NCBI RefSeq assembly: GCF_000497125.1
Contig: NC_090597.1
Location: 62,001 to 126,000, forward strand
Length of the DNA stretch: 64,000 nucleotides
Direction: 5' to 3'
Source: Spironucleus salmonicida
Taxonomy: Eukaryota
The position numbers and the translations under genes were made by a program. Under the pieces are notes generated by a model, which worked only from the letters and a program-made list of their open reading frames with translations, made no database searches and was not told where the DNA came from. Positions 2,783-52,352 of the stretch are shown here, piece after piece (position 1 is the first letter of the stretch; every line of letters starts with the position of its first letter).

Positions 2783-3442
2783 TCACTTTTTACCCCTCTT
2801 GATAAAATAATAGGCAAGGCCGCCAGCAACGGCGCCAACGACAAGAATCACACCGATGACAATTCCGGTAACCACCCCGCCGCCTAGCTTGTTGCTGGCA
2901 GGGGCTTCGGGGTCCACCGGAACAACTGGAACTATTGGGACAACTGGGACCTCTGGATCTACCGGGGCAACTGGGATATCTGGCTCAGGAACAATAGGCC
3001 AGCACCTTCCGACAAATTTTCTATATCCTTCAGCACAATCCATACAGCGGCCAGCATCGTCCATCTTCATTCCTTTTAAACAGGTGGCGCATGTTGGTAC
3101 AACATCACCTGTGCAGGTCCCACAATTACCACTATTTCCACATTTACACGGCGAGGTGGCTCCTGCTTTGCAATCAGTAGCTACTCCTTCTTTACAAAAG
3201 TAACCATATTTTAGATCATTACAAATAACGGTGCACTCACCTGTTATTGTTGTTACGTGGGTAGCAGGCTCACAGGAATTGCACGAAGCGGTGGAGTCAC
3301 ATACAATGCAATTCATCTAGCATGGTTTGCACGTTAGGGTATTTCCATCACAATATCCTTTCTTTTAACTAGAACAGTCGGTATGTCGTGTACACTTGGT
3401 ATCTGCGTTATTTACTTGCTTATTGCTATTATCTGGGGCCAT
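2783..3442 (-). CDS. Small cysteine-rich membrane protein (CRMP-1/VSP-like, 219 aa)
   Basis: ATG at 3442 in frame with ORF 2783..3316; CxxC repeats, Pro/Val-rich stalk, TM GGGVVTGIVIGVILVVGAVAGGLAYYFI, tail KRGKK-TGA. Confidence 0.9.
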
Positions 3443-4131
3443 TTTGAAGATTATGATAAATATTATATTAGTTAATCACCAAAACACTATTCTCGCTGTT
3501 TTTTAAATTTTATAAAGTATGTATATTTTTCTTATTAAAGTTGGTCCAAAACCTAAAAATAAATTGTTTAGGTACTATATTAATAAATTATCTAACTATA
3601 CAATTTAATGTATAAGACAATAATTACTTACTTTAATATCACATATAAAGATAGCTTAATGTAAAAAATAGAAAATCTTTTGAAAGGTACTCAGTAATTT
3701 AAAGATTTCAGTTATCTGCAAATAGTTATAATAGCAGCTAATTTTATTTAAAATTATATAAAACAGATATTGACATATTATATTGATTTTACTATTTTCT
3801 TAACACTTTTCATATAATATCAAACTACTGTGCATAGCAAAAATTAGTAACTTCTATTTGTAATAAAATAATGTTATCATAATTATAACTTAGAATATAT
3901 GAATTCTACTCTATTAAATAATTTATACTATGAATAACAAATAAAGTATAATATTATATAGAACTAACTATTTAATATCATAAATCATAACTACAAGTAA
4001 GAAGGGAAAATAACAAAATGAATTTAATATCATTAATATATTATTCAATTAAATTAATACTATCATTATATAATATACACTTTATATTGAAAATGCATTT
4101 ATGTGGATAAGAGATTTACGATACGAATTTG

Positions 4132-7100
4132 TCACTCCACAGGATTTGGCGATCGTATCTCAAAGGAAGCCAGCTAAAGCTTTGAATCTATACCAGTAAG
4201 CGAGTTCTGTGAATTTTGTTGAGATTTGTATTATTTTGTTCCAAAAAGTTGATTGCTATCTAATACGTTGTTTTTGCTGCTAATAAATGGTTTCCTTGTA
4301 CCTTTCCTTGGCAAATTTCCATCGAGATTCATTATGTTTCGTCTCGTCTAGGATGTGGGGCTTTCCACGTTATCATTAAATTAGCCAGATTCCGTCTATG
4401 ATCGAGCCTTTTTCTTCAGTATTGCGGTTTTAATGAACGGCATAACTCCACTGACTTCAGTTTCTAGCTCTTTTGCCTACCTCACATTCTTTCTATGATA
4501 CCAGTAAGAGCTTCTGATATTAAAGTAGGTTAAACTAACAAAAACAATAACTAAAGCAAAAGTTTGGAGAATAACATGAATGGGCGTACTGAGGTAGTTA
4601 TTATTTTATGAATAATAATAATCCCCTACCGCTGCTATAAACTGTGCCCAAATTGCTGATGAGATTAGGTTTATCGAAAACTCAACTGCCGATATTCGCA
4701 TCATTACTATAATATTGACAACGTTAAATAACATTTAGGTGAGCAAGCTGGAGAAAAATATGTCATACTAAAGAATCGCAGTTAATATTTCACCAGGGTA
4801 TAACAATCCAACGACTGCATTAATGCAGAAAGACGAAAGCGAAATTCTGTAAATAGCGCCAACCTCGCCATATCGTCCGAGAATCAAATCAAATACATAA
4901 AATTACGTACCGCTTAATATTATAGCTAGAAGAACCATAGCTTGGCCTATGATAGCATTTCCTGCCGAGGATCCAGTAAAGTACCCAGCTGCCATAGAAT
5001 CCTAGATCGCATAATATATTTATGTTGCTAGCGGAAGCCCTAAGCCTATGAACAGGGCTAGCTTCTGTTGGGGTTTGAATCTGAATCTTGCTAGAAATAT
5101 GCACAATAATAGCGTTATTGGGGGACCTGCTAGTTTATAGATCTGTTCTCCAAAGTCTTAGACAATATCTGTTACAGCTAGGTACTAAACAGCATTAAAC
5201 GAAACCTAGATAGCAGCTGCCAGAATAAACAAATAAAAATGAGACGCCATGTTAAAAAAGTACCTCTTGTATACTGGAGGCGCTAAAAACACGAATAGCA
5301 AGGCAAATGGCAGCATCGAGAATATGCTAACCGCTGTTTGCATGAAAAAATCATCTATGTAGACATCCTATATAGCTACTATGACAGCTAAAATCTATGA
5401 TAGTATGACGAATATAAGGTGAACTCCGAGGCGCTTAACCAGCTTTTTGACAAAAATTTACAAATCTTTTCGCTTTTCCTTCCCAATTAAAAATATAATT
5501 AAAATTAAAGCAAGTAAAATTAGTAATCCTAGTGAGGCAGGAACAAAAAAACTAAGCACGTACTGCTTGGTCAGGCCAATTTTAACGCATTCTTAATTAC
5601 TAAGTTGGTACCTAGAGCTGCAAGAAACGCAAATTGCACGACCAGCCTCATTGCTATAGCACACGCCGTTCAGCCCTAGCTCGACTTTGCAGCAGCAGAG
5701 CGCAAATAACCCACTCGTGCATTTGCACGGCATGTAGCCTTTCGCGCACTCAGAGCACACATTTCCACTCCATCCTTCATCGCACTAATCGCACCAGAAA
5801 CGCTATACTGACGCAATGCACCGGCCCCGCAGCTTCCCATTCTATGGAACCGTCAGAACACCACAATTTCCCTTAATGTTCACCAACGTGCTATCGCACT
5901 CCACGCACATATTTTTCAGTTTGTCAAACTTCCTGCAAGTTCCGTCTGCGCATACTATATTGGAACCCTCAAGCGCGCATGAATCGGCGAAATTGCTCGC
6001 GTGCTGTTTGCAAACACCCTGGAAATTGAACTGAACTGAGCACTGCTAGCAGTTAAAAGACTGCTGCAAATTACCACACTCGAAGCAGTAAATATTTCCA
6101 TCCCAATCTGTGCCGCAGGACTCGTTAACTTGCTAAATGCAAGATACTCCGAAACTCAGAAAGCCGGTATCGCACGTTTAACACGAATCCTGTAGCTTAT
6201 AGCCGGTCTGGCAGCTCGCGCAAACTATCCTACTTCCAGAGTAGAAGCAGACGCCGTAGCTGCAGCTGTCGCATGACCTGAGGCAGAGGTCCTCTCCAAT
6301 TTCAAGTTTCTGTTCGTCTGGGAGCAAGTTTGAGCTGAAATACCCAGACGAGCAGCCTTAACAGACTCCTGAAAAATCAGTCTCGTAGCCCTCCGCACAC
6401 TTGTCGCAGAGCGGTAGGGCGAAGTTCGCAGCACAAACGCTGCAGAACAGATCGGAGGGGTCTGCGGCATTCTGAAAGCAGTCTCCAGTGGGAATATTTG
6501 CATCAATATAGCACGAATCTCGTAGCTACAGCTCGGTGCACTCGTCGCAAGTTGGTCCTTTGTAGCCTTCGTAGCAGGAGCAGATTTTTTCGGTTTCTGT
6601 CGTAAAACACACCCCGTGGGGGTTCGAGTCCTGCTCGTAGCACTTTTCTTCGTAAAGCACAAAATTTGGAAAGCAGTCGAGGCACTTGTAGTCGTTTGGT
6701 AGCATGTAGCAGCGCCCGGTGCACTCTGGCAGCGTGCACTTTTCGAGGCACGAACTGCCGATGAGCAGGTAGTCTGCCGCACAGCCAACGCAGATTAGCG
6801 CTTACAGTTCATCTAGATAACAATCGTTTTGCCCCACCTTTGGCCAGCATTTAGCCTAGTCTTACACGAAACCTTCAGCGCATGAGTCGCACTATATGCC
6901 AATAAGGCCCAGGGCACACTTCGTGCACAGTGGTCCATTCTCAGTCAAAAAGCAGTTTCCTTGAGTGCAATCTGTGCATTTGCGGTAGCAGCCCCCAAAT
7001 TATAGCTCAAACCTGTCTTCCACATCGCAAGCGTCGCATCCTCGTCCAAAATACCCTAAATAACAATCCCCTAGGCAGTTCAGAACTAGCGCAATACCGA

Positions 7101-8010
7101 CATAGCAGCGGTTTCCTCGGCACGTTTCACAGTACTAAAAGCACTCGCCATTAACACTCATAAACCCAGGGGCACAATCTGAACAGGTAGGCCCAATTAA
7201 ATCGCCCGCACAAGACTTGCAGGAAATACCATCGCTCCCTGTGAAGTAACAGTCTCCATCGCAATCGGTGCATACTTTGGCGCATTTCCCTTCGAAATCA
7301 GCTGCCCCGGTGCTGCATATCTCGCAGTTATTGCCCTCTGCGAAACTCTCACATTTGCAGTTGGTATCAGGTTAGCAAACTCCGTAAATGCAGGTTTCCG
7401 TGGAGCACGAGTAGCGGCACCTTTAGTTATATAGGGTTTACCCTTCGTTGCAGGACAAACAGATTATGTCACCTTAGTATGCGATACAGTGACCGCGCAG
7501 CTCTTCAGGATCTTGTATTTAACAACACTGATTGTTGTACAGTTGAAATCCTGGTAAGCACTAATCGCACGCAGTTCCGACAGTACCATCGTGGCATTAA
7601 ATACAATTGATCTCACCATCTTTATCGTAGTAGCAGTTCCCAGTTTAACATGAATAACAGCGTTTGTAACAGTTTCCATCGACTTTTAAAAAGTCTTCAG
7701 CGCAGTCAGCGCAGTCTGGCTATCCCCAGCCAACCAGACAGGCACCACACTCCCAAGGGCCTGTGTTTCCAGACAGATAAACACAGTACTCACCTTTTGT
7801 GCAAAATCCGGTAGTGCATTGTACCTTGCAGGAGGGGTTACTTGGGTCTGTGCAGAACTGGCAGCAGGAGCCAGCAGTGTTGTCTTGGCACATACACTCT
7901 CCATTATAGCATGGAAAACCGTTACAATCATTTGATGATTGGCAATAAACATTAGAGCATATCGTAGTCTCAATGGTAATTGGCTAGAACATCAATAGTA
8001 GTATGAGCAT
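4132..8010 (-). CDS. Cys-rich (EGF/CxxC) ectodomain fused to an SLC35F/DMT-like multi-pass transporter domain (~1292 aa)
   Basis: ATG 8010 (MLILLLMFQPITIETTICSNVYCQSSNDC...), same frame at 5521-5580 and at TGA 4132-4134 (...EIRSPNPVE*). About 820 aa of Cys repeats, one TM, then ~10 hydrophobic segments resembling SLC35F1/F2 (DUF914), and a ~130-aa hydrophilic tail. Confidence 0.85.
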
Positions 8011-8829
8011 TTTTTTGGAATGATATTGATAAGTAAAATGTATTTAAATATATAATTAAAAATTTAGATTATATGAAATATATAATTATTTGAATGTAAA
8101 TAATAGAATATTCGTATAACATATTAATCTAAAAATTGGATATATGCTGTAAGAAACAGGTTATATTAAATAATACTTGATAAATTACTTTATCAGTTTC
8201 TTTTAATATTCACATTATATAGTAAAATATTTTATTTTAGAATTAAAAAAATATCCAAAGTTATGTTTCATATAATAATAGTGTATTTGTAAATCTTTTA
8301 ACTTAAAGATTTAATACGAGAGTACTTAAATCTGGCAATAGCTTGAAATAACCATTAGTAATTTAAGTCAGTATAGTGAGTATAAACAAACATTTAAAAA
8401 AATATAGAAACTTACTGTAAATTTAGCAAGTTTCGTGTAATTCGGATTAAATTAAGGTATAAATGATGCATTTAATATACCTTTATAATTCAAATATCAT
8501 CTTAGTTATTATATAATTTATTATATAACAATATTAAATATACCTTTTTAATTTAGTATCACCTTAGTATACGAAAATAAAAAATTATATATCACTCAAT
8601 CTTCTAATTATAATACCTACCTTAATTTTTAGTTTAAATTTTACTAACTGAGCAGACTTAATTTAAATTATTATTTTAATATATAATATATAATTTTAAC
8701 TATTATTGCGATATTTACATATTCTATTTTTTAGATTTCACTCTATCCCATTAAATTATTAATAATGATGGAAAATCTCACATTACATAATTATATTACT
8801 ATTATCTTAAATATACTTTTATAGTTAAG

Positions 8830-10122
8830 ATGACAGGCTGCCATGTAGTAGGATGCATCGAGTGCCCAAATAACCCTTACGTATGTCAGGCGTGCACTAC
8901 GGACTTTAAGTTGGTGGACAATTACTGCCTTTCGCCATGTAGTGCCTGTCCAGAAGGCACCAGCTGTCAAGGCAGTTCGTCAACTTGTACTGCGTGCTCG
9001 AATCCCAACTGCCTTAATTGTGAAGGAATGTGGTGTCTGCAGTGCAAGACTGGGTATAAACTACAAGGCCATATAAACTGCAACAAGATGACATGTAACG
9101 ACTGCTCTTATGGTTTTTTCTGCGACGAAAAGGCTCTAGTAAGCTGCATAGATTGCACGAAAATTCCCGAAGGAAAATTCTGTAACTGCTATCACTCGCG
9201 AATTTAGAATTGCCTATCCTGTAACTAAATAACTGGCAACTGTTCTAATTGCCTGTAGGGGTATTTTCCAGCCAAAAATGGGTAGAAGTGCATCCGTAAC
9301 GGAACCTGCCTGGTAACACAGGACTGCGGTCTGAACCAGTTCTGCTAGGGCTCCAAGTGCGTTAAAGGGGATCTGGCGCACCCGGTCTCCTGCGGCGAGC
9401 TGCTGAACTGCACGTCCTGCGTTTCGCCGTTCTTCTGCCTGAGGTGCAGCGGCGACTACCACCTCGGGGAGGACCTGAAGTGCCTCACGCCTCGCTGTGA
9501 GACGCTTGAGCTGAACCAGTACTGCAAAGACGTCAACGTCCCCGCAGCGTGCCCTGGTCCGTTCGCATGCAGGTGCCCGAACCAGAGAGACCACTGCGCG
9601 ACCTGCGATTCCGACGGCTGTGCGACCTGTCTGGCTGGGTTCGCACTGAGCAAGCACGGCTGTACGCGGAACGTGTGCACGTCCTCGGCTGACTGCCTCT
9701 TCGGCAGCTTCTGCGCCGAGAAGGGCTGTCAGGGCTGCGAGAGCATCGGTAGCGGCGGGTACTGCAACTGCGGTGCGCTGGTGCAGAACTGCGCGCTCTG
9801 CAGCGACGGCGTATGCCTGAAGTGCTAGCACGGCTCGTAGCTGACCCAGGGCTACTGCGTGATCACGGACTCATCCGACGGCGCGGTGGACGTGAAGCTG
9901 ATGATAGAGATTTCGGTTGCTATCATTATCGTCGTGATCGGCGTCACTCTCATCATCCTGTTCGTGATATTTAAGAAGTACTCGCCTAAGCAAAATGGGT
10001 TCGAAAAAATTGGTACATAAGACAAAATAACACCGAGACTAATGGATAATTCGCAGAATAAGTCATTAGAATTTAGTTTGTCCCATAATGATGAAGGTTC
10101 TAGCACTCTTGTTCAATAGTGA
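8830..10122 (+). CDS. Cysteine-rich membrane protein (430 aa), family X copy 1
   Basis: MTGCHVVGCIECPNNPYVC...; CxxC repeats read through TAR; TM EISVAIIIVVIGVTLIILFVIF-KKY; ends CAA TAG TGA (10120-10122). Confidence 0.9.
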
Positions 10123-11244
10123 AGGTTTTATTATTTTTTATTTACTACAATTAAATATTATGTATTTAGCGATATATAGTTGAGTAGTTTCACTTTAAGA
10201 AAACATGAATTGACAGGTCTAGATTCAAAGATTGATACTTAGCTCTAGAAAGTATAGTAACAAGAATTACTAATTTAGACGTAAAAATTATACTTAAAAG
10301 AACCCTGATATATTATGTACTTTTTTACGAAGCTAGTGGCGGAATAGCTAATAACGTAATCTGCACCTAGTTGTGCGTACGAACAAATTGAATAGAAAAC
10401 AGTAAGCATGGTATGATCTTAGAAAACACAAAATAAGCTGCAATACTTCTAGTCTAATAAATACTTAATTTAGATCATAGATTGTTAATATTTAATTTGA
10501 GGTTTTTATGGTTGATTTCACGGCTCGAACTGATGGCCTCAGTATTATAACAACAAAAATTGAGGCGATTCATGGTGCTTAATATTAAACTTTGACAAAC
10601 ATGCGTGATTCTAGGCTGTTGTGAACCTTGGAGCGTTATATGCCGTCTTCGCGCTAACTAATGAGACCAATACGATTTAGACTCTTATGTTATAATATAT
10701 ATTGCGCTGACTGCGTAAGTAACAGTACTATGTCGTAATCCTACCGCGTGCGACAGGCCCGTAATCACTGTGGCTATGGTACTATCAATCTTTTTGATAA
10801 CGGATAATTAAATATTATATCGCATATATACAGGATCATAGTGAATCAAAATGGGAACCCTGCAATTAGTAGTAGTGACGGGGTAGCTAATGTATATTTG
10901 AATTATCTGAATCAGGATACGTTTATATAGTTAGTATACCGGTTCCTGACGCCCCGGTCCAGTCTGATTGCTTCATCGAAGCCAGTATGATTAGGGACTA
11001 TATTAGTGATCTTCATCCATGATTTCTAGCTGTCATTACGCTCTGGCCTGATGTATGTACAATCATTCCATTTTCTAGTTCCGTGAGACTTCGGGAACAT
11101 CAGCCCACAGAATGTGCCTCACTGGTATATGATTCCTATCCTGCCTGTATATGTGGTCATTGTATCCACAGGATAGTCTACGGTTCAGCGTGAGCCTATC
11201 ACTGCACCATCGTCCAGAAAATCTATATAAGTGAATACACGACC

Positions 11245-11799
11245 TCACTCTACTTTCTTCAGGAAAGCCGCGGGATTACCTCCGACTACCACCATCTCCG
11301 GTACATCCTTAACCACAACGCTTCCTGCTGCGATGATGGCTCCCCTGCCAATCTTGATACCAGGGCAGATAACGACTCTGCCGCCGATCCAGACATCATC
11401 CCCAATCTCAATCTATTTCGCAAATTCGATGCCAGTAGCTCTGACCACCGGATCTAGTGGGTGGCCTACGGTGTAGATATCCACATTGGGACCGATCATA
11501 ACATTCCTCCCGATGATAACCTTGGCAGAGTCAAGCACTGTGAAGCCATAGTTAGCGAAGAAATTGTCGCCAATGTGGATATTAATCCCGTAGTCGCAGA
11601 AAAATGGCTGGATCATAAAGCAGTTTACCCCGTGGGATCCGAGTAGGCCATGGATAATAGCACCGTCCTCATGCGTAATCACAGAATTTCCGCGGTTGTA
11701 CTCAGTGCAAGTTGCGTGAGCTTTGATGCGGAGCTTCACCAGGTAGGACTCGTTTGAGTCGTAGGTGCGGCCAGCTAGCATATCATTGTAATTATCCAT
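11245..11799 (-). CDS. Sugar (maltose/galactoside) O-acetyltransferase, LbH hexapeptide family (184 aa), copy 1
   Basis: [10 protein letters not shown]-terminus, [41 protein letters not shown]; after TAG=Gln: [46 protein letters not shown]. Confidence 0.93.
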
Positions 11800-11916
11800 T
11801 TTGAGAAAGGGAAGTTTGTTTATATATTATTAGCTACGTCGGAGCTGTTATCTCTATCATATATGCTAGAGATTAGATGGAAAGTGTTAGTTTGTGGCTG
11901 AAAGTATAAAGGTGGC

Positions 11917-12330
11917 TCACTGGTCCGGTCCGAGAATGCTGTCTGGGGTTGTATATAGCGTGCTGGGTTTGGGTCGCGGAGGCGGCGAAACTGCCTACTG
12001 GTAGCTCTGGTCACCTCTCCCCTGGACCTGGTACTTGTCCGGTTCGTTGTACATACCCTGGATATGATGAGCAAACTCGGCACACGCCATCCTGCTGGGG
12101 TGGGAGTACCCACAGGCCCTGCAGGTGGTTGCCTAACCGTACTGCTATACCACAAATGGGCTTTCAACGAAGGATGAATAAAACGGCTGCCGGTAGACGT
12201 GAGAGTACATAGGTTGGAGGAAGCCGTAATTTGAATAGCTCTAGTATCCATATGGTGAATAGTAGGATGAGTAGCTAGAACAGAAGTATGGGTCGTACGG
12301 GTCGTACATGCCGCAGTAGCCTCCGCCCAT
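11917..12330 (-). CDS. Small Tyr/Pro/Gln-rich hypothetical protein (137 aa), copy 1
   Basis: Mirror of 20164..20577; AAAATG start and CAGTGA stop; co-oriented between MATE and the acetyltransferase. Confidence 0.6.
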
Positions 12331-12434
12331 TTTTTCTGACAATTATTATTTTATAATTTGAAGATGTAGCAGTTTCTTTCCCCAGGCTGGTCCCCAAGTA
12401 TATAATGTCGAGACCATCCTTCCTAGCTCGATCA

Positions 12435-13847
12435 TCAGGCTTTCCCTAGTACAACATCGGCATAGACTACAATCTGGTCATCTGAATTGAGGTCCCTTCG
12501 CAATCGCCAAATGACCTACCATAACACTGCCATGCTTGCAATCCCGCAGACAACCTCAGCTGCGGCCGTGGCATAGAACAAAGTGGACACACGCCCGGTA
12601 ATCAGAGGTCCCAACCATGACCACATACAACTAATAACTACCTTACATAGCTGAAGAGAAGCAGCCGCCCAGAACCGCTTTTGCTGTTGTAAGACCGCAA
12701 CCACAATACCTTGTGCCACGCCACACAAAGTACAGATCATGTTAAGTCGTATAATTCCGGAACACTAAGTGCGTACTCGTTCATCTGTAGTGAAGAGTCC
12801 CGTTATAGGTTGAGCGAACACCATAAGAACAGCAGCGATGAGTCCCCCAACGCTGCCGCATATGGTTAGCGAGCTGCGTATAGTTTTTAGCGTTTTCTGG
12901 TGTTCCCGCTGCGAAATACTGATGGCTACCACGGGTTAGATACCCTACTACATCCCACTAAGGGGCATCGTGAGTAGGGTCATTACCTTCGAGCAGATTC
13001 CCTGGACCAGCTGGAAGTGCTGTGTCTCTAAGTCATTCTATGATAACTTTCGCAGCAAAAACGGCACAAAGAACTGGGGAAGTGATGTCTACGAGTATCC
13101 CATGAAGGTTAAGAGCCCAAACTACTGAATTTGGAGAAGGCTTCCCAGCTTTGGCTTGAACTGGTTAAGCCGCAACCGTAACGGCGCAAAAGGCGTCATA
13201 AAGAAGACAATAGTGACAGCACCCATCGCACAGTACGCAATACAGGACGCCCACGCAGCCCCCTATACCCCCACCTTTAGTACACCTAGGAAGTAATAGT
13301 CGAGACCGATGTTGATTACCGCCGATACACACTACCGTAGCATTGCGAAGGTAGCTAGGTTCTGACTTTTTAGCACGCCCGTGAAACCAGAAGATACAGC
13401 ATAGGAGAGTGGACCGAATATGGTCATGAAGCGGCCATACTATAAGCTGAGTGGAATTACTTGCGCAGTCACCCCCAACAGAAGTAGATATGGTTCTAGT
13501 ATAAATATTAGCATTATCGGGACTATTATGGCATGCATCAGACAGAGAAGTAGCTGTTATGCGAGGAAGTGGCCAGCCTATTCTTTGCTATCCTCGCCGA
13601 TGGCACGCGAAATGAAAACAGCCGCTCCTGCTGACTCAGATGCAATTGTTTGCGAAAATAGGTAGTATTCTGTAGGGAGGAAGTTAGACACGCCCACCAG
13701 AGCAAGGTCGCCGCAGAACCTGCCGACCAGCACTGACTCCAATGCATTGTAGATGGAAAGCACTACCTAGCCCAATAAAGAGGGAATTCCTATCTTAATG
13801 AGTAGTACTGCCGGTTTTTCCGATCGAAGTTTTTCCAATCTCCCCAT
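12435..13847 (-). CDS. MATE-family efflux transporter (470 aa), copy 1
   Basis: Exact mirror of 18647..20059. Confidence 0.9.
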
Positions 13848-13899
13848 TTTATGTATGTAGGGTGCAAAAAAGTAGAGGTGGAGTGGTCGCGATGTAGAG

Positions 13900-14066
13900 G
13901 CGAGCCCTCCCGTGAGGAATAGCACCCCAGGACTAAGTACAGAAGTCGATGCTTCCGAGTACCTAGGGACAGTCCCTGATTTTCGTGATGAGCGCTGCTA
14001 GGCCGTACTAGTTATTGGGTTGGAGACGGAGGGACGTTCGAGGTCCCGTGCTGATTGCAGGCTCGC
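13900..14066. other. GC-rich, potentially structured 167-nt element (candidate ncRNA or mini inverted-repeat element)
   Basis: Closed by GCGAGCC (13900-06) / GGCTCGC (14060-66); internal hairpins AGGGAcagTCCCT and GGGACgttcgagGTCCC; GTGATGA (13985-91) and CTGA (14051-54). Mirror copy at 18428..18594. Confidence 0.3.
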
Positions 14067-14506
14067 GTACAGTTATCAATTGTTATAAAATTATTTTTTA
14101 TAAGTATGGTAGAGTATCTTTATTTTTGTCATGAAAAGGCGAGTAAGTTTTTAACGTTATGATACATTTTATTTAATATTATATTAATATTAAGTTGTTT
14201 TTATTATTGTGATTTTTTAGCAACAACATTTATATAATTTAGTGATAATTATATTATAAATGGGATATCTAGAAGATAGTTTTTGCAGAAATTTCCAATT
14301 ATTTATTTCCATGATATTTATACAATATATTATAAATTTTTAACTGACAATACTTAGGATTTTTCAAATCTTTCAAAGATTTATTTTTGAATTATTATTA
14401 TATGTTATTATTAATTATTTTAATTACCTGCAGTATTTATATAATTATAATCATATTTAAATACTTAAATTTGACTAGGTTGTTTTGATTGCCACTCCCT
14501 CACAAA

Positions 14507-18067
<3,561 letters not shown>

Positions 18068-18646
18068 TGCTTTTTTAAATTAATTTTAGCAATATAGCTA
18101 TGTATTTTGTGCGATTATAGGCTGATAGTTTTCCTTGATCATTTTTATAATCCTTATTTATAGAATTCACGTTATTATATATCATATTTTATATTAAATG
18201 ACAAATTTATTTGTATAGTTTAAGCAAGACAATCCTGAAACATTATTACTATTTAGAATAAATCCAAAATAATATATAAATTCTTAAATATTAAGTAATA
18301 TTTATCATATAATACTAATATAATGAACATCTTAATTTTCAATTACTGTAAAGTAATAAATTAAAACTCATCACAATGAACGTATGTTTTATTTTAAATA
18401 ATATATTAAACATTGTGAAAACTATACGCGAGCCTGCAATCAGCACGGGACCTCGAACGTCCCTCCGTCTCCAACCCAATAACTAGTACGGCCTAGCAGC
18501 GCTCATCACGAAAATCAGGGACTGTCCCTAGGTACTCGGAAGCATCGACTTCTGTACTTAGTCCTGGGGTGCTATTCCTCACGGGAGGGCTCGCCTCTAC
18601 ATCGCGACCACTCCACCTCTACTTTTTTGCACCCTACATACATAAA

Positions 18647-20059
18647 ATGGGGAGATTGGAAAAACTTCGATCGGAAAAACCGGCAGTACTACTCATTAAG
18701 ATAGGAATTCCCTCTTTATTGGGCTAGGTAGTGCTTTCCATCTACAATGCATTGGAGTCAGTGCTGGTCGGCAGGTTCTGCGGCGACCTTGCTCTGGTGG
18801 GCGTGTCTAACTTCCTCCCTACAGAATACTACCTATTTTCGCAAACAATTGCATCTGAGTCAGCAGGAGCGGCTGTTTTCATTTCGCGTGCCATCGGCGA
18901 GGATAGCAAAGAATAGGCTGGCCACTTCCTCGCATAACAGCTACTTCTCTGTCTGATGCATGCCATAATAGTCCCGATAATGCTAATATTTATACTAGAA
19001 CCATATCTACTTCTGTTGGGGGTGACTGCGCAAGTAATTCCACTCAGCTTATAGTATGGCCGCTTCATGACCATATTCGGTCCACTCTCCTATGCTGTAT
19101 CTTCTGGTTTCACGGGCGTGCTAAAAAGTCAGAACCTAGCTACCTTCGCAATGCTACGGTAGTGTGTATCGGCGGTAATCAACATCGGTCTCGACTATTA
19201 CTTCCTAGGTGTACTAAAGGTGGGGGTATAGGGGGCTGCGTGGGCGTCCTGTATTGCGTACTGTGCGATGGGTGCTGTCACTATTGTCTTCTTTATGACG
19301 CCTTTTGCGCCGTTACGGTTGCGGCTTAACCAGTTCAAGCCAAAGCTGGGAAGCCTTCTCCAAATTCAGTAGTTTGGGCTCTTAACCTTCATGGGATACT
19401 CGTAGACATCACTTCCCCAGTTCTTTGTGCCGTTTTTGCTGCGAAAGTTATCATAGAATGACTTAGAGACACAGCACTTCCAGCTGGTCCAGGGAATCTG
19501 CTCGAAGGTAATGACCCTACTCACGATGCCCCTTAGTGGGATGTAGTAGGGTATCTAACCCGTGGTAGCCATCAGTATTTCGCAGCGGGAACACCAGAAA
19601 ACGCTAAAAACTATACGCAGCTCGCTAACCATATGCGGCAGCGTTGGGGGACTCATCGCTGCTGTTCTTATGGTGTTCGCTCAACCTATAACGGGACTCT
19701 TCACTACAGATGAACGAGTACGCACTTAGTGTTCCGGAATTATACGACTTAACATGATCTGTACTTTGTGTGGCGTGGCACAAGGTATTGTGGTTGCGGT
19801 CTTACAACAGCAAAAGCGGTTCTGGGCGGCTGCTTCTCTTCAGCTATGTAAGGTAGTTATTAGTTGTATGTGGTCATGGTTGGGACCTCTGATTACCGGG
19901 CGTGTGTCCACTTTGTTCTATGCCACGGCCGCAGCTGAGGTTGTCTGCGGGATTGCAAGCATGGCAGTGTTATGGTAGGTCATTTGGCGATTGCGAAGGG
20001 ACCTCAATTCAGATGACCAGATTGTAGTCTATGCCGATGTTGTACTAGGGAAAGCCTGA
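18647..20059 (+). CDS. MATE-family efflux transporter (470 aa), copy 2
   Basis: MGRLEKLRSEKPAVLLIKIGIPSLLGQVVLSIYNALESVLVGRFCGDLALVGV...; INIGLDYYFLGVLKVGVQGAAWASCIA; PLSGMQQGIQPVVAIS. Bacterial-type NorM/MepA-like motifs; TGA at 20057-20059. Confidence 0.9.
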
Positions 20060-20163
20060 TGATCGAGCTAGGAAGGATGGTCTCGACATTATATACTTGG
20101 GGACCAGCCTGGGGAAAGAAACTGCTACATCTTCAAATTATAAAATAATAATTGTCAGAAAAA

Positions 20164-20577
20164 ATGGGCGGAGGCTACTGCGGCATGTACGACCCGTACG
20201 ACCCATACTTCTGTTCTAGCTACTCATCCTACTATTCACCATATGGATACTAGAGCTATTCAAATTACGGCTTCCTCCAACCTATGTACTCTCACGTCTA
20301 CCGGCAGCCGTTTTATTCATCCTTCGTTGAAAGCCCATTTGTGGTATAGCAGTACGGTTAGGCAACCACCTGCAGGGCCTGTGGGTACTCCCACCCCAGC
20401 AGGATGGCGTGTGCCGAGTTTGCTCATCATATCCAGGGTATGTACAACGAACCGGACAAGTACCAGGTCCAGGGGAGAGGTGACCAGAGCTACCAGTAGG
20501 CAGTTTCGCCGCCTCCGCGACCCAAACCCAGCACGCTATATACAACCCCAGACAGCATTCTCGGACCGGACCAGTGA
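20164..20577 (+). CDS. Small Tyr/Pro/Gln-rich hypothetical protein (137 aa), copy 2
   Basis: MGGGYCGMYDPYDPYFCSSYSSYYSPYGYQSYSNYG...TCRACGYSHPSRMAC...PPPRPKP...GPDQ-TGA in table 6. Confidence 0.6.
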
Positions 20578-20694
20578 GCCACCTTTATACTTTCAGCCAC
20601 AAACTAACACTTTCCATCTAATCTCTAGCATATATGATAGAGATAACAGCTCCGACGTAGCTAATAATATATAAACAAACTTCCCTTTCTCAAA

Positions 20695-21249
20695 ATGGAT
20701 AATTACAATGATATGCTAGCTGGCCGCACCTACGACTCAAACGAGTCCTACCTGGTGAAGCTCCGCATCAAAGCTCACGCAACTTGCACTGAGTACAACC
20801 GCGGAAATTCTGTGATTACGCATGAGGACGGTGCTATTATCCATGGCCTACTCGGATCCCACGGGGTAAACTGCTTTATGATCCAGCCATTTTTCTGCGA
20901 CTACGGGATTAATATCCACATTGGCGACAATTTCTTCGCTAACTATGGCTTCACAGTGCTTGACTCTGCCAAGGTTATCATCGGGAGGAATGTTATGATC
21001 GGTCCCAATGTGGATATCTACACCGTAGGCCACCCACTAGATCCGGTGGTCAGAGCTACTGGCATCGAATTTGCGAAATAGATTGAGATTGGGGATGATG
21101 TCTGGATCGGCGGCAGAGTCGTTATCTGCCCTGGTATCAAGATTGGCAGGGGAGCCATCATCGCAGCAGGAAGCGTTGTGGTTAAGGATGTACCGGAGAT
21201 GGTGGTAGTCGGAGGTAATCCCGCGGCTTTCCTGAAGAAAGTAGAGTGA
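20695..21249 (+). CDS. Sugar O-acetyltransferase (184 aa), copy 2
   Basis: ORF 20695..21081 continues through TAG to [15 protein letters not shown] (21247-21249). Confidence 0.93.
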
Positions 21250-22371
21250 GGTCGTGTATTCACTTATATAGATTTTCTGGACGATGGTGCAGTGATAGGC
21301 TCACGCTGAACCGTAGACTATCCTGTGGATACAATGACCACATATACAGGCAGGATAGGAATCATATACCAGTGAGGCACATTCTGTGGGCTGATGTTCC
21401 CGAAGTCTCACGGAACTAGAAAATGGAATGATTGTACATACATCAGGCCAGAGCGTAATGACAGCTAGAAATCATGGATGAAGATCACTAATATAGTCCC
21501 TAATCATACTGGCTTCGATGAAGCAATCAGACTGGACCGGGGCGTCAGGAACCGGTATACTAACTATATAAACGTATCCTGATTCAGATAATTCAAATAT
21601 ACATTAGCTACCCCGTCACTACTACTAATTGCAGGGTTCCCATTTTGATTCACTATGATCCTGTATATATGCGATATAATATTTAATTATCCGTTATCAA
21701 AAAGATTGATAGTACCATAGCCACAGTGATTACGGGCCTGTCGCACGCGGTAGGATTACGACATAGTACTGTTACTTACGCAGTCAGCGCAATATATATT
21801 ATAACATAAGAGTCTAAATCGTATTGGTCTCATTAGTTAGCGCGAAGACGGCATATAACGCTCCAAGGTTCACAACAGCCTAGAATCACGCATGTTTGTC
21901 AAAGTTTAATATTAAGCACCATGAATCGCCTCAATTTTTGTTGTTATAATACTGAGGCCATCAGTTCGAGCCGTGAAATCAACCATAAAAACCTCAAATT
22001 AAATATTAACAATCTATGATCTAAATTAAGTATTTATTAGACTAGAAGTATTGCAGCTTATTTTGTGTTTTCTAAGATCATACCATGCTTACTGTTTTCT
22101 ATTCAATTTGTTCGTACGCACAACTAGGTGCAGATTACGTTATTAGCTATTCCGCCACTAGCTTCGTAAAAAAGTACATAATATATCAGGGTTCTTTTAA
22201 GTATAATTTTTACGTCTAAATTAGTAATTCTTGTTACTATACTTTCTAGAGCTAAGTATCAATCTTTGAATCTAGACCTGTCAATTCATGTTTTCTTAAA
22301 GTGAAACTACTCAACTATATATCGCTAAATACATAATATTTAATTGTAGTAAATAAAAAATAATAAAACCT

Positions 22372-26735: not shown

Positions 26736-27749
26736 TTTGATTATATATCTTAGCTTAAAATATAATTGAAAGATTACTTTGCGCGTGCTCCATTATTCAG
26801 TTATTAATTAGATGGATATCTAAATGTTTTAACAAGATGTAATATTTAATTATATATATATAATAATATTAAAAACAAATTCTTAAAATTCCAATAACTT
26901 TTTAAGAGAAAAAATCTTTTCATCTTATACTATTTCTAAATTCTATATGATAAGCAATATATATGCTAAATAGCATTATGCGTTATTTGATTACCTAAGT
27001 AATAAAATAATTTATATTATATCCATTATTATTTGTTATATTAAAATATATTATAAGCTCTTAAAATTATAAAGTAGGTAAATTATATATGATATTGCGT
27101 TAGAAGCATGTATTGAATAACAGCCTTAGATTTTGCTATTTGTGTAAAATAAGTAGTTGAAACTATTTTTTAAAGTCTTATGATAAATGTTTAATGCTGG
27201 TTAATATTTTAGTAACTCATGACAGTTTCTAATCATTAATAAATAATATATCTTTTAGAATAGAGATAATCTATAAGTTAAATCTTTATTAAGTTTTATT
27301 ATTCTTATTATGGCAATTATTTTTACTACATAAAATTTAACAAATTTTTAATCTATTTTAACGAATTCTAAATAAATATTATTACTAAACCTATAAATAT
27401 ATTTTAATTATTTTTCGCTTAATAACAATAAGTATACAATTAAGTATTTTATTACTAATTTTAACAATAATATACAAGCAAATTATCTAATTTTTGGCAA
27501 ATAGGTTTCTTAAACAAATCATTATTTCATATTTACAATTATATTATACATTATAGTTAGCTCTGTATATTTTCTTTCTCAATTTAAACTGGTTATAAAT
27601 ATATAACATTTTCTGAATTTTTAACCTGTACCCATGATTTATTTAGTATTGCTAGTATTTCACTTAACAGAATTTTTACAACTACATTAATACGCAAATT
27701 TAACCCATTTTCACTCAATATTCTATGTCTCTTTCCTTTTATTATTTTT

Positions 27750-48473: not shown

Positions 48474-51400
48474 ATACTCATACTACTCTGGATGTTCTAG
48501 CCAATTACCATTGAGACTGCGATATGCTCTAATGTTTATTGCCAATCATCAAATGATTGTAACGGTTTTCCATGCTATAATTGAGAGTGTATGTGCCAAG
48601 ACAACACTGCTGGCTCCTGCTGCCAGTTCTGCACAGACCCAAGTAACCCCTCCTGCAAGGTACAATGCACTACCGGATTTTGCACAAAAGGTGAGTACTG
48701 TGTTTATCTGTCTGGAAACACAGGCCCTTGGGAGTGTGGTGCCTGTCTGGTTGGCTGGGGATAGCCAGACTGCGCTGACTGCGCTGAAGACTTTTTAAAA
48801 GTCGATGGAAACTGTTACAAACGCTGTTATTCATGTTAAACTGGGAACTGCTACTACGATAAAGATGGTGAGATCAATTGTATTTAATGCCACGATGGTA
48901 CTGTCGGAACTGCGTGCGATTAGTGCTTACCAGGATTTCAACTGTACAACAATCAGTGTTGTGAAATACAAGATCCTGAAGAGCTGCGCGGTCACTGTAT
49001 CGCATACTAAGGTGACATAATCTGTTTGTCCTGCAACGAAGGGTAAACCCTATATAACTAAAGGTGCCTCTACTCGTGCTCCACGGAAAACTGCATTTAC
49101 GGAGTTTGCTAACCTGATACCAACTGCAAATGTGATAGTTTCGCAGAGGGCAATAACTGCGAGATATGCAGCACCGGGGCGGCTGATTTCGAAGGGAAAT
49201 GCACCAAAGTATGCACAGATTGCGATGGAGACTGTTACTCCACAGGGAGCGATGGGATTTCCTGCAAGTCTTGTGCGGGCGATTTAATTGGGCCTACCTG
49301 TTCAGATTGTGCCCCTGGGTTTATGAGTGTTAATGGCGAGTGCTTTTAGTACTGTGAAACGTGCCGAGGAAACCGCTGCTATGTCGGTATTGCGCTAGTT
49401 CTGAACTGCCTAGGGGATTGTTATTTAGGGTATTTTGGACGAGGATGCGACGCTTGCGATGTGGAAGACAGGTTTGAGCTATAATTTGGGGGCTGCTACC
49501 GCAAATGCACAGATTGCACTCAAGGAAACTGCTTTTTGACTGAGAATGGGCCACTGTGCACGAAGTGTGCCCTGGGCCTTATTGGCATATAGTGCGACTC
49601 ATGCGCTGAAGGTTTCGTGTAAGACTAGGCTAAATGCTGGCCAAAGGTGGGGCAAAACGATTGTTATCTAGATGAACTGTAAGCGCTAATCTGCGTTGGC
49701 TGTGCGGCAGACTACCTGCTCATCGGCAGTTCGTGCCTCGAAAAGTGCACGCTGCCAGAGTGCACCGGGCGCTGCTACATGCTACCAAACGACTACAAGT
49801 GCCTCGACTGCTTTCCAAATTTTGTGCTTTACGAAGAAAAGTGCTACGAGCAGGACTCGAACCCCCACGGGGTGTGTTTTACGACAGAAACCGAAAAAAT
49901 CTGCTCCTGCTACGAAGGCTACAAAGGACCAACTTGCGGCGAGTGCACCGAGCTGTAGCTACGAGATTCGTGCTATATTGATGCAAATATTCCCACTGGA
50001 GACTGCTTTCAGAATGCCGCAGACCCCTCCGATCTGTTCTGCAGCGTTTGTGCTGCGAACTTCGCCCTACCGCTCTGCGACAAGTGTGCGGAGGGCTACG
50101 AGACTGATTTTTCAGGAGTCTGTTAAGGCTGCTCGTCTGGGTATTTCAGCTCAAACTTGCTCCCAGACGAACAGAAACTTGAAATTGGAGAGGACCTCTG
50201 CCTCAGGGCATGCGACAGCTGCAGCTACGGCGTCTGCTTCTACTCTGGAAGTAGGATAGTTTGCGCGAGCTGCCAGACCGGCTATAAGCTACAGGATTCG
50301 TGTTAAACGTGCGATACCGGCTTTCTGAGTTTTGGAGTATCTTGTATTTAGCAAGTTAACGAGTCCTGCGGGTCAGATTGGGATGGAAATATTTACTGCT
50401 TCGAGTGTGATAATTTACAGTAATCTTTTAACTGCTAGCAGTGCTCAGTTCAGTTCAATTTCCAGGGTGTTTGCAAACAGCACGCGAGCAATTTCGCCGA
50501 TTCATGCGCGCTTGAGGGTTCCAATATAGTATACGCAGACGGAACTTGCAGGAAGTTTGACAAACTGAAAAATATGTGCGTGGAGTGCGATAGCACGTTG
50601 GTGAACATTAAGGGAAATTGTGGTGTTCTGACGGTTCCATAGAATGGGCAGCTGCGGGGCCGGTGCATTGCGTCAGTATAGCGTTTCTGGTGCGATTAGT
50701 GCGATGAAGGATGGAGTGGAAATGTGTGCTCTGAGTGCGCGAAAGGCTACATGCCGTGCAAATGCACGAGTGGGCTATTTGCGCTCTGCTGCTGCAAAGT
50801 CGAGCTAGGGCTGAATGGCGTGTGCTATAGCAATGAGGCTGGTCGTGCAATTTGCGTTTCTTGCAGCTCTAGGTACCAACTTAGTAATTAAGAATGCGTT
50901 AAAATTGGCCTGACCAAGCAGTACGTGCTTAGTTTTTTTGTTCCTGCCTCACTAGGATTACTAATATTACTTGCTTTAATTTTAATTATATTTTTAATTG
51001 GGAAGGAAAAGCGAAAAGATTTGTAAATTTTTGTCAAAAAGCTGGTTAAGCGCCTCGGAGTTCACCTTATATTCGTCATACTATCATAGATTTTAGCTGT
51101 CATAGTAGCTATATAGGATGTCTATATAGATGATTTTTTCATGCAAACAGCGGTTAGCATATTCTCGATGCTGCCATTTGCCTTGCTATTCGTGTTTTTA
51201 GCACCTCCAGTATACAAGAGGTACTTTTTTAACATGGCGTCTCATTTTTATTTGTTTATTCTGGCAGCTGCTATCTAGGTTTCGTTTAATGCTGTTTAGT
51301 ACCTAGCTGTAACAGATATTGTCTAAGACTTTGGAGAACAGATCTATAAACTAGCAGGTCCCCCAATAACGCTATTATTGTGCATATTTCTCGCAAGATT

Positions 51401-52352
51401 CAGATTCAAACCCCAACAGAAGCTAGCCCTGTTCATAGGCTTAGGGCTTCCGCTAGCAACATAAATATATTATGCGATCTAGGATTCTATGGCAGCTGGG
51501 TACTTTACTGGCTCCTCGGCAGGAAATGCTATCATAGGCCAAGCTATGGTTCTTCTAGCTATAATATTAAGCGGTACGTAATTTTATGTATTTGATTTGA
51601 TTCTCGGACGATATGGCGAGGTTGGCGCTATTTACAGAATTTCGCTTTCGTCTTTCTGCATTAATGCAGTCGTTGGATTGTTATACCCTGGTGAAATATT
51701 AACTGCGATTCTTTAGTATGACATATTTTTCTCCAGCTTGCTCACCTAAATGTTATTTAACGTTGTCAATATTATAGTAATGATGCGAATATCGGCAGTT
51801 GAGTTTTCGATAAACCTAATCTCATCAGCAATTTGGGCACAGTTTATAGCAGCGGTAGGGGATTATTATTATTCATAAAATAATAACTACCTCAGTACGC
51901 CCATTCATGTTATTCTCCAAACTTTTGCTTTAGTTATTGTTTTTGTTAGTTTAACCTACTTTAATATCAGAAGCTCTTACTGGTATCATAGAAAGAATGT
52001 GAGGTAGGCAAAAGAGCTAGAAACTGAAGTCAGTGGAGTTATGCCGTTCATTAAAACCGCAATACTGAAGAAAAAGGCTCGATCATAGACGGAATCTGGC
52101 TAATTTAATGATAACGTGGAAAGCCCCACATCCTAGACGAGACGAAACATAATGAATCTCGATGGAAATTTGCCAAGGAAAGGTACAAGGAAACCATTTA
52201 TTAGCAGCAAAAACAACGTATTAGATAGCAATGAACTTTTTGGAACAAAATAATATAAATCTCAACAAAATTCACAGAATTCGTTTACTGGTATAGATTC
52301 AAAGCTTTAGCTGGCTTCCTTTGAGATACGATCGCCAAATCCTGTGGAGTGA
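48474..52352 (+). pseudogene. Second, recently inactivated copy of the Cys-rich/SLC35F-like fusion gene
   Basis: Start ATG is ATA (48474-76); GGA is TGA in frame at 48582-84; otherwise collinear to TGA 52350-52. Confidence 0.82.

Follow-up and report, generated by a model that had tools for sequence, protein, structure and literature searches.

A predicted laminin-EGF-like rod and a predicted DMT-fold module in one polypeptide: a paralog family of Spironucleus salmonicida

Cysteine-rich surface proteins of diplomonads have so far been treated as single-pass coat proteins or variant antigens, and transporters of the DMT superfamily normally possess no ectodomain. Carriers that need a single-pass glycoprotein partner include the SLC3-SLC7 heteromeric amino-acid transporters, basigin-MCT and collectrin/ACE2-B0AT1, and in adhesion GPCRs and proteins of the polycystin-1 type a tall ectodomain is placed on a multi-pass foot. 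In published work, CRMPs are defined by a C-terminal TM (PMC3916229), and Cys-rich proteins by a C-terminal helix and a short tail of <100 aa (PMC11437800). In this study, a gene located on a 64,000-nucleotide stretch of the S. salmonicida genome (the window) was analyzed, for which a sequence-only reading had claimed a previously undescribed fusion of a Cys-rich surface ectodomain to a transporter. Literature searches agree with the claimed novelty: among the matches listed, no paper was found combining Spironucleus with SLC35, EamA or nucleotide sugar transporter, nor one combining 'DMT superfamily' with EGF or ectodomain, and six accession numbers tried did not occur in the literature. The gene is genuine and presents a known transporter fold in a new architecture, a conserved design that so far has no name. 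The interpretation favored here, with a probability of roughly 60%, is that of a single diplomonad gene encoding a signal-like peptide, a laminin-EGF-like rod, an extra anchor helix (TM0), a basic linker, a DMT module that still works as a carrier, and a tail.

The coding sequence (copy A; Table 1) lies on the minus strand, which had been left unstated previously, and is read from position 8010 to 4132. In genetic code table 6, 43 in-frame TAA/TAG codons (21 TAA, 22 TAG) are read as Q, compared to 34 CAA/CAG codons, and the terminal TGA is the sole TGA of the frame. The five remaining frames of 4132-8010 contain 12–32 TGA codons each; if TGA occurred at the pooled rate of these frames, 1292 consecutive codons would lack it with P ~2.5e-9. 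Since the longest table-11 ORF overlapping positions 3000-9500 comprises only 205 aa, the gene is invisible in the standard-code track, as had been noticed before. The ATG at 8010 is embedded in an A-rich context (AAAAAAATG), and AAAatg is given as a common initiator context in PMC3916229. The single table-6 frame proposed to run from the signal-like N-terminus to the hydrophilic tail was recovered, and all peptides quoted from it (VILSQILAVIV, YLFILAAAIQVSFNAVQYLAV, GPPITLLLCIFLARFRF, NAIIGQAMVLLAIILSG, NIIVMMRISAVEFSINLISSAIWA and GKEKRK) are present in the translation. A TGA or frameshift between the domains had been named as evidence that would speak against the fusion; neither occurs at the domain junction (window 5428-5556) in the table-6 frame. 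Public collections already contain the exact 1292-aa protein, within a cluster drawing on NCBI/UniRef sources, and the only name given to its relatives is 'Transmembrane domain-containing protein'. Published filters (C-terminal helix, short tail) exclude this family, and the label therefore persists.

Table 1. Features of the gene, its encoded protein and the surrounding duplication (window coordinates)
Feature	Position	Strand	Basis or remark
Complete CDS (copy A)	4132..8010	-	1292 codons + TGA stop at 4132-4134, table 6
Short hydrophobic signal-like N-terminus (MLILLLMF...), residues 1-17	7960..8010	-	Hydropathy 1.62 over residues 1-19
Predicted exoplasmic rod, ~15-16 eight-Cys laminin-type-EGF-like repeats, residues 18-817	5560..7959	-	Cys spacing, model
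Extra anchor helix TM0 (out to in), residues 819-842	5485..5556	-	Hydropathy 3.04; model helix 6-32
Basic cytosolic linker GKEKRKDLQIFVKKLVKRL, residues 843-861 (predicted)	5428..5484	-	8 K/R in 19 residues
Ten-helix DMT-fold module, residues 862-1163 (predicted)	4522..5427	-	AF2 model + structure searches
Hydrophilic cytosolic tail, residues 1164-1292 (129 aa; predicted)	4135..4521	-	21 K/R, 24 S/T
Copy B, inverted duplicate of gene	48474..52352	+	ATG -> ATA at start; GGA -> TGA at codon 37
Inverted duplication, 6.9 kb, left arm	3240..10122	.	Partner 46362-53243, 97.7% identical

Judged by comparison of protein sequences, the fusion of rod and module is no accident, as it is shared by a paralog family. 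The proposed search for the same fusion yielded 12 distinct S. salmonicida proteins of at least 1253 aa with collinear ectodomain and module; paralogs were drawn from protein databases only, and within the protein databases and metagenomes covered, the family was seen in one species plus two fragments. The module was present in 14 of the 15 family proteins tested and, in the long ones, is always located C-terminal to a collinear ~800-aa ectodomain. Identities among family proteins range from 42/63% (ectodomain/TM part) down to 27/26%. Furthermore, longer paralogs carry an extra N-terminal head of 650–780 aa atop the rod. A profile search of 591–2000-aa proteins retrieved only copy B, and a scan of JGI metagenomes matched 251 pattern sites, 0 of which were confirmed. 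Copy B resides on the second arm of the inverted duplication, which carries the gene together with its Cys-rich neighbors, and retains an ORF from codon 40 onwards (48591-52352, 1253 aa), corresponding to P0002. Given the 5' damage in copy B, at least some family members may be decaying.

These data bear on the reading of the locus as an artefact, namely a CRMP gene and a small transporter gene that a permissive code joins into one frame, or else a pseudogene that is no longer functional. Copy B, which lacks an ATG and contains a TGA at codon 37, would fit this reading, as would the family's annotations in the 2014 assembly, which are fragments of 189–857 aa. However, copy A is free of internal TGA over all 1292 codons, and all long paralogs, even at identities as low as 26%, keep the rod-module junction collinear. 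Moreover, no stand-alone full-length module was found among 1.84 billion representatives or in a profile search of 107–590-aa proteins, the latter returning fragments only, and the module differs between copies A and B by 5 synonymous versus 0 nonsynonymous changes. An artefact is accordingly regarded as extremely improbable and close to refuted.

The ectodomain had been described as ~820 aa of EGF/CxxC repeats, and this description holds: 121 Cys were counted in the first 820 residues versus 2 in residues 831-1292, and residues 1-817 contain 31 CxxC and 5 CxC motifs as well as Cys residues that recur at spacings of 4,3,5,10,3,9,3,11, i.e., 8 Cys per ~48 aa. The Cys content amounts to 14.8% in the ectodomain and 9.5% in the whole protein (123 of 1292 residues), and nearly all Cys are invariant across 11 paralogs. 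The AF2 model of this part (pLDDT 74.1, pTM 0.27) shows a rod of short beta-hairpins. Using Foldseek, it was matched with probabilities of 0.99–1.00 to LE modules of netrin-1 and laminin, the matches spanning 157–190 columns and, for laminin beta1 (4aqs), 289 columns, with weaker matches to Notch/Delta EGF arrays; TM-scores are low because the model is elongated. The Foldseek rows ranked highest, in which the model was aligned to hairpin repeats of LRP2 and of large clostridial toxins, were set aside as repeat-on-repeat artefacts (TM-scores <=0.09, rmsd 35–65 A). Based on the model, the rod is predicted to be laminin-type EGF (LE)-like, with eight Cys per ~50-residue module arranged in small beta-hairpins. 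Among Pfam models of the EGF_laminin type, 0 families matched the window protein, and PF24973 (EGF_LMN_ATRN) was touched by one of nine family members at E 0.042. EGF-type neighbors of the ectodomain in the ESM atlas reached scores of only 0.78–0.85 and serve as a lead only.

For the multi-pass part, an AF2 model was obtained with pLDDT 72.9 and pTM 0.67, showing ten helices after TM0; it was built from only nine sequences of a single species, and its confidence is intermediate. In the Foldseek comparison that had been suggested for this model, DMT entries occupy all of ranks 1–35 (PfCRT, CMP-sialic acid transporter (CST), LicB, SLC35B1, Vrg4, YddG, TPT). VIA-align placed 21 DMT entries at Z 11.9–21.0, the next entry following at 7.7; the values were 21.0 for LicB (260 aa, 3.4 A), 20.5 for CST, 20.0 for Vrg4 and 19.7 for PfCRT (292 aa). 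When 48,161 representative chains were scanned independently, eight of them, all DMT, reached Z 14.5–20.8, and the next stood at 8.4. Furthermore, a features search of the ESM atlas with the module gave scores of 0.96–0.97, and among the matches listed all named clusters carry DMT families; the ten best family-bearing matches share a family or clan. In sequence space, the family profile matched a single PDB sequence at E<=10, again the CMP-sialic acid transporter (E 0.064), and phmmer searches of the PDB with the module, the whole protein and paralog P0003 gave no match or noise at E 0.2–0.76. Taken together, the modeled structure supports the assignment of the multi-pass part to the DMT-superfamily fold (TCDB 2.A.7). 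Internal 5+5 repeats of DMT proteins are often visible in structure only; in the family alignment, hhalign of helices 1-5 against 6-10 gave no significant match (E 0.37, probability 0.2%).

The sequence-only reading had specified an SLC35F/DMT-like transporter. Its DMT part is borne out by the structure searches, but membership in SLC35F/DUF914 (PF06027) is unsupported as stated because no Pfam model matches, SLC35F included. In the Pfam check proposed for SLC35F, EamA and CRT-like families, the window protein matched no family at E<=10, PF06027 included, and nine family members matched no DMT-clan family, again including PF06027, at E<=1, in searches in which the HMMER filters discard most matches above E ~0.1. 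NCBIfam gave 0 relevant matches for the window protein, and chance-level rows of the sequence libraries (Histone_H2A_C, DH_2, IBV_3B, TMEM154) were set aside. Structure cannot separate DMT families in this case, since LicB, CST, Vrg4, SLC35B1 and PfCRT tie at Z 19.7–21.0, and the fold comparison is silent on SLC35F because no solved SLC35F structure is among the matches. In the ESM atlas, neighbors carrying UAA, EamA, Nuc_sug_transp, TPT, CRT-like and SLC35F families likewise tie at 0.96–0.97 among the matches listed. What the module has in common with SLC35F/DUF914, a eukaryotic DMT branch, are language-model neighbors (among the matches listed, four of ten clusters contain PF06027, in 40–98% of their members); it differs in that the PF06027 model fails to match the copy A protein.

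Regarding topology, positive-inside counting gave 8, 2, 1, 2, 1 and 5 K/R in the cytosolic loops (total 19) and 0, 1, 0, 0 and 0 in the exoplasmic loops (total 1). This count places the N- and C-termini of the DMT unit in the cytosol and the Cys-rich part on the exoplasmic side, a sequence-derived prediction. Cytosolic ends of the DMT unit are compatible with an exoplasmic N-terminal domain because of the extra helix TM0. The TM anchor with basic stop-transfer (GKEKRK), the ~10 further hydrophobic segments and the hydrophilic tail that had been described beforehand were all located in the protein (Table 1). Under the favored interpretation, the ~800 residues after the signal-like peptide would form a disulfide-stapled rod on the exoplasmic side, either at the cell surface or in an organelle lumen, and TM0 would bring the chain back to the cytosol, where the strongly basic linker would sit. 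The ten-helix module would follow with both ends cytosolic, and the cytosolic tail would terminate the protein. A fold in common with transporters is by itself no proof of transport, but the module may still operate as a secondary carrier that moves a small solute; by analogy to the single-pass glycoprotein partners of other carriers, the rod could be a built-in accessory ectodomain serving binding, protection or trafficking.

The predicted topology is identical whether the rod faces an organelle lumen or the outside, and fits an endomembrane carrier. In this alternative the protein resides in the ER, a Golgi-like compartment or endolysosomal/peripheral vesicles, exposes a luminal rod and acts as a nucleotide-sugar, CRT-type or thiol carrier rather than as a surface receptor. 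The best structural matches are organellar, comprising Golgi CST and Vrg4, ER SLC35B1 and PfCRT, the last being a digestive-vacuole carrier. Moreover, in PMC3916229, tagged S. salmonicida CRMP-1 proteins are assigned to different membrane domains, only one being VSP-like at the cell surface and flagella. On the other hand, a rod of 15–16 repeats, topped in paralogs by a large head, is encountered more typically in surface proteins, and the plasma-membrane carriers LicB and YddG match the module equally well. An endomembrane carrier is thus considered unlikely.

A further alternative, put forward by the sequence-only reading, is a 'transceptor', in which a ligand bound by the rod gates or signals via the DMT module and the tail, so that import would be coupled to capture or sensing. 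One chain indeed combines an ectodomain, a predicted carrier fold and a cytosolic tail of 129 aa that is rich in S/T and K/R, and the fusion is kept in all long paralogs. Nevertheless, no signalling domain or motif was found in the tail (0 families in Pfam), and the tail's conservation is confined to near-identical copies rather than extending across the paralogs. Moreover, TM0 and the cytosolic linker intervene between rod and module, so that no obvious allosteric path leads from one to the other. A transceptor mechanism is accordingly rated as very unlikely.

Recent sequence changes show that the DMT module is under stronger constraint than the rod, as far as can be deduced from coding sequences. 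Between copies A and B, the ectodomain accumulated 16 nonsynonymous and 12 synonymous changes; considering the comparisons of A with B and of A with P0017, 0 amino-acid changes fall into residues 844-1170 versus 25 in ectodomain and tail. Furthermore, the intrahelical polar residues Q872, Q881, D882, N1096, N1114 and S1118 as well as the helix-end residues K959 and R1055 are invariant in nine paralogs. Both observations bear only indirectly on solute transport. These findings are relevant for the proposal that the module is an anchor only, i.e., a DMT-derived bundle without transport that acts as a rigid foot or oligomerization platform for a surface rod with functions in adhesion, coating or immune evasion. 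The module sequence lies beyond the reach of every DMT Pfam model, the large head on longer paralogs resembles the layout of adhesins, and the gene is part of duplicated arrays in which its neighbors are ordinary genes of the CRMP type (cf. PMC9509377). But an anchor would require neither ten helices conserved to 63% identity, against 42% in the drifting rod, nor invariant polar residues within helices, nor would it show 0 out of 25 recent amino-acid changes; one helix suffices for hundreds of sister CRMPs, according to PMC3916229 and PMC9509377. A mere anchor function is therefore judged unlikely, and a module still functioning as a carrier is preferred.

Recognition of a predicted DMT-fold carrier beneath this conserved rod of 800 aa provides a testable biochemical handle on the family, adds an unusual architecture to the DMT transporter superfamily and points to a candidate surface-exposed, parasite-specific membrane protein of a salmon pathogen. 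E. coli EamA, a DMT member, exports cysteine and O-acetylserine. Cysteine is the probable major thiol of this parasite according to PMC3916229. In a more far-reaching and distinctly unlikely extension of the favored interpretation, the family might represent diplomonad-specific 'stalked carriers', in which binding or sensing by the rod is coupled to solute flux, either as receptor-transporters or for export of thiols or small solutes servicing a 15%-cysteine coat. If rod and carrier were indeed coupled in function, the protein would show, in compact form, a naturally occurring fusion of a receptor with a secondary carrier.

In comparison to known systems, the ectodomain resembles Giardia VSP/HCMP and S. 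salmonicida CRMP-1/CRMP-2 in its Cys content of 14.8%, its many CxxC motifs and the basic residues after the first helix; it exceeds the VSP/CRMP threshold of >10% Cys with several CxxC/CxC motifs, and CRMP-type genes adjoin copy A in duplicated arrays. Unlike this class, the copy A protein continues for 449 residues after TM0, including ten more helices, and its ectodomain is collinearly conserved among paralogs instead of being shuffled. The copy A protein lacks the basic pentapeptide of the class in its strict form [KR][KR]X[KR][KR], which GKEKRK does not fit; only KEKR/KRK occur. With the 10-TM carriers of the DMT superfamily, namely the CMP-sialic acid transporter (6i1r/6i1z), Vrg4 (5oge), SLC35B1 (9gs5), LicB (7paf), YddG (5i20), TPT (5y78) and PfCRT (6ukj), the modeled bundle superposes over 240–292 residues at Z 16–21 and shares the predicted cytosolic location of both ends; the helix 4 motif (P-x-x-T-L-L..F....F/K....Q) aligns weakly to the equivalent CST repeat. 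In contrast to these carriers, sequence identity is 8–16% with no Pfam family match for the module, and the protein adds an N-terminal helix and an 800-aa Cys-rich domain predicted to be exoplasmic. Similar to adhesion GPCRs and polycystin-1, an EGF/laminin-type stalk, topped by a head in paralogs, would be mounted on a polytopic module, but the foot has a transporter fold instead of a 7TM or channel fold, and no GAIN/GPS-like cleavage element was seen in the copy A protein (0 families in Pfam). With respect to partner-dependent carriers, carrier folds differ and ectodomains are unrelated, and the analogy is functional only: as in those systems, a large one-helix ectodomain would stand beside a multi-pass carrier, here within one polypeptide.

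Translation of the window protein gene (copy A) with genetic code table 6 confirmed the single reading frame proposed in the sequence-only reading, which runs on the minus strand and is closed by TGA after 1292 codons. In this frame, 21 TAA and 22 TAG codons encode glutamine next to 16 CAA and 18 CAG codons. Each of the remaining five frames across these positions contains 12–32 TGA codons and, based on their pooled TGA rate, the chance of a TGA-free run of this length is approximately 2.5e-9. The gene is indeed invisible under the standard code, the longest table 11 ORF overlapping window positions 3000–9500 comprising 205 aa, and all peptides quoted previously were recovered in the table 6 translation. 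Furthermore, the exact 1292-aa protein already belongs to a public protein cluster. Features of the gene, its product and its surroundings are compiled in the table.

Features of the window protein, its gene and surrounding repeats (window coordinates unless residues are stated)
Feature	Position	Strand	Remarks
Copy A CDS	8010->4132	minus	1292 codons then TGA, table 6
Short hydrophobic N-terminus	residues 1-17		
Cys-rich region (rod)	residues 18-817		
Anchor helix TM0	residues 819-842		strongly hydrophobic
Basic stretch	directly after TM0		GKEKRKDLQIFVKKLVKRL; 8 K/R
Module	residues 862-1163		ten further helices
C-terminal tail	last 129 residues		hydrophilic
Single-pass Cys-rich membrane protein gene	2783-3442	minus	219 aa, C-terminus ...IKRGKK
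Single-pass Cys-rich membrane protein gene	8830-10122	plus	430 aa, one helix, tail ~60 aa
Copy B	48474-52352	plus	gene copy inside 6.9-kb inverted duplicate
Inverted duplicate, 6.9 kb	3240-10122 / 53243-46362		97.7% identity
Long repeat pair	8772-14096 / 18396-23721		
Long repeat pair	34119-35831 / 36407-38119		
Long repeat pair	27861-28970 / 62891-64000		
Long repeat pair	39939-41731 / 59945-61736		

Basic residues are unevenly distributed over the loops of the protein, with 8, 2, 1, 2, 1 and 5 K/R in loops assigned to the cytosol and 0, 1, 0, 0 and 0 in those assigned to the outside. Accordingly, the Cys-rich part is placed outside or in a lumen and both ends of the module in the cytosol. 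Carriers of the drug/metabolite transporter (DMT) superfamily have a ‘both ends in’ topology, and TM0 would serve to make it compatible with an N-terminal domain on the exoplasmic side. A single N-x-S/T sequon (residue 629) was observed in the 1292 aa, although approximately 800 of them are exoplasmic; N-glycosylation sites may possibly be avoided.

The first 820 residues contain 121 Cys, and 31 CxxC motifs were counted in residues 1–817. Almost all Cys of the rod are invariant across 11 paralogs, and the spacing 4,3,5,10,3,9,3,11 recurs, corresponding to eight Cys per ~48 residues, a period that matches laminin-type EGF modules. The rod model (residues 18–817; pLDDT 74.1, pTM 0.27), built from an alignment of 11 sequences, all paralogs from one species, is a chain of short beta-hairpins. 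Its credible Foldseek matches were the laminin-type EGF modules of netrin-1/laminin (probability 0.99–1.00, 16–20% identity over 157–190 columns, reaching 289 columns for laminin beta1 and one netrin-neogenin entry) and the EGF arrays of Notch/Delta/NELL. In view of the Cys motifs and these matches, the description as ‘EGF/CxxC repeats’ is fair. Clostridial toxin and LRP2 repeats, nominally the top rows, were dismissed as repeat artefacts (TM-scores ≤0.09).

Profile searches returned little for the module: with the whole protein as query, Pfam yielded no family at E≤10, with the C-terminal 463 aa two chance-level rows and with nine family members no DMT family, NCBIfam gave no match to the window protein, and the PDB sequence search none to the module. 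The AlphaFold2 model of residues 810–1180 (pLDDT 72.9, pTM 0.67) was based on an alignment of nine family members, all paralogs from one species. Foldseek ranks 1–35 against the PDB were exclusively DMT carriers (PfCRT, CMP-sialic acid transporter (CST), LicB, SLC35B1, Vrg4, YddG and triose-phosphate translocator), with GPCR and other unrelated rows below. VIA-align Z-scores were 21.0 for LicB (260 residues, 3.4 A), 20.5 for CST, 20.0 for Vrg4 and 19.7 for PfCRT (292 residues); 21 DMT entries reached 11.9–21.0, the next entry 7.7. When 48,161 representative chains were scanned independently of Foldseek, eight chains, all DMT, reached Z 14.5–20.8, followed by a ninth at 8.4. Language-model neighbours scored 0.96–0.97, and DMT families occurred in every named cluster among the matches listed, namely a mixture of UAA, EamA, Nuc_sug_transp, TPT, CRT-like and SLC35F. 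Moreover, the sole match of the family profile to PDB sequences at E≤10 was CST (E 0.064), pairing query helices 3–5 with target helices 8–10. Based on these results, a DMT fold is accepted for the modelled module. The internal 5+5 repeat was not visible by sequence. Regarding the earlier proposal of an SLC35F/DMT-like transporter, the fold is thus upheld by structural matches; SLC35F membership is not accepted, since its own profile gave no match and neither structure nor neighbours favour it. Golgi and ER carriers are among the best structural matches, and tagged CRMP-1 proteins of S. salmonicida were found at different membrane domains (PMC3916229). A location of the window protein in endomembranes rather than at the surface, which these observations would favour, appears rather unlikely, independently of the other readings.

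All named relatives in database searches originate from S. salmonicida and are labelled ‘Transmembrane domain-containing protein’. The remaining two, P0016 (196 aa) and P0015/P0028 (65 aa), are DMT module fragments that are 20% and 40% identical to the window protein; these fragments hint at an occurrence of the family in other, unsampled organisms. The module is present in 12 distinct proteins of 1253–2766 aa and is preceded by a collinear ~800-aa rod in all 12. Identity to the window protein declines together for both parts: the nearest paralogs share 42% with its rod and 63% with its module, the most distant ones 27% and 26%. A stand-alone full-length module was found neither among 1.84 billion representatives nor in a profile search of 107–590-aa proteins. 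Given this collinearity in all 12 proteins and the lack of stand-alone modules in these searches, the fusion is considered old within the family and not a reading artefact. Long members (P0003–P0008, P0014, P0021, P0026, P0027) carry 650–780 extra N-terminal residues with abundant I/N/S/L repeats, almost Cys-free, devoid of Cys repeats and without Pfam or PDB sequence match. This extension could represent a head on the rod, the window protein being a ‘headless’ member.

Long repeats form a mosaic in the window (four of the five pairs inverted, with 97.7%, 99.5%, 99.8% and 88.0% identity, one direct with 99.2%), and many genes therefore occur twice. This fits the 19.2% duplicated fraction of the S. 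salmonicida assembly and the CRMP gene arrays described in the available part of PMC9509377. The Cys-rich genes flanking copy A are of the ordinary single-pass type and have twins near 46362–47654 (minus strand). G+C content is very low (0.20–0.24) at window positions 24001–28000, 42001–44000 and 56001–58000, and 0.40–0.49 in adjoining gene blocks. In copy B, ATA replaces the start codon and TGA occurs at codon 37 (48474–48593, plus strand); the ORF remaining from codon 40 is publicly annotated as a 1253-aa protein without the signal-like peptide. Copy B may be decaying, or used from another start.

Comparison of both copies revealed five synonymous and no nonsynonymous differences in the transmembrane part, versus 12 and 16 in the rod, the latter including both disabling changes and one lost Cys (Cys-to-Tyr, residue 687). 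When P0017, a third near-identical but truncated copy (857 aa) elsewhere on the contig, was also compared with copy A, residues 844–1170 showed no amino acid change over both comparisons, and rod plus tail 25. Across nine aligned paralogs, Q872, Q881, D882, N1096, N1114 and S1118 inside helices are invariant, likewise K959 and R1055 at helix ends. Such a pattern would be expected of a working carrier and exceeds what an anchor needs. A module serving as anchor without transport appears an unlikely alternative.

The data show a single ORF, a topology signal, a DMT fold in the module, a fusion conserved among the paralogs and constraint that differs between module and rod. The best reading, held at a probability of roughly 0.6, is that a small solute is still transported by the module and that the rod would be an accessory ectodomain built into the same chain, with a role in binding, protection or trafficking. 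True receptor-transporter coupling, the ‘transceptor’ of the sequence-only reading, appears improbable.

Literature on Spironucleus and SLC35, EamA or nucleotide-sugar transporters was absent among the matches listed, and no publication citing any of six family accession numbers was found; supplementary tables might still list these genes. Diplomonad Cys-rich proteins are classified by a C-terminal helix and a short tail (PMC3916229, PMC6397501, PMC11437800, PMC9509377), the latter limited to <100 aa after the helix (PMC11437800). The available parts of these four reports do not mention a multi-pass or transporter-fused Cys-rich protein and, because the classes as described there require such a C-terminus, the rod-module family is excluded from them. 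The rod-module proteins form an unrecognised paralog family in this fish parasite and represent a known transporter fold in a new architectural variant.
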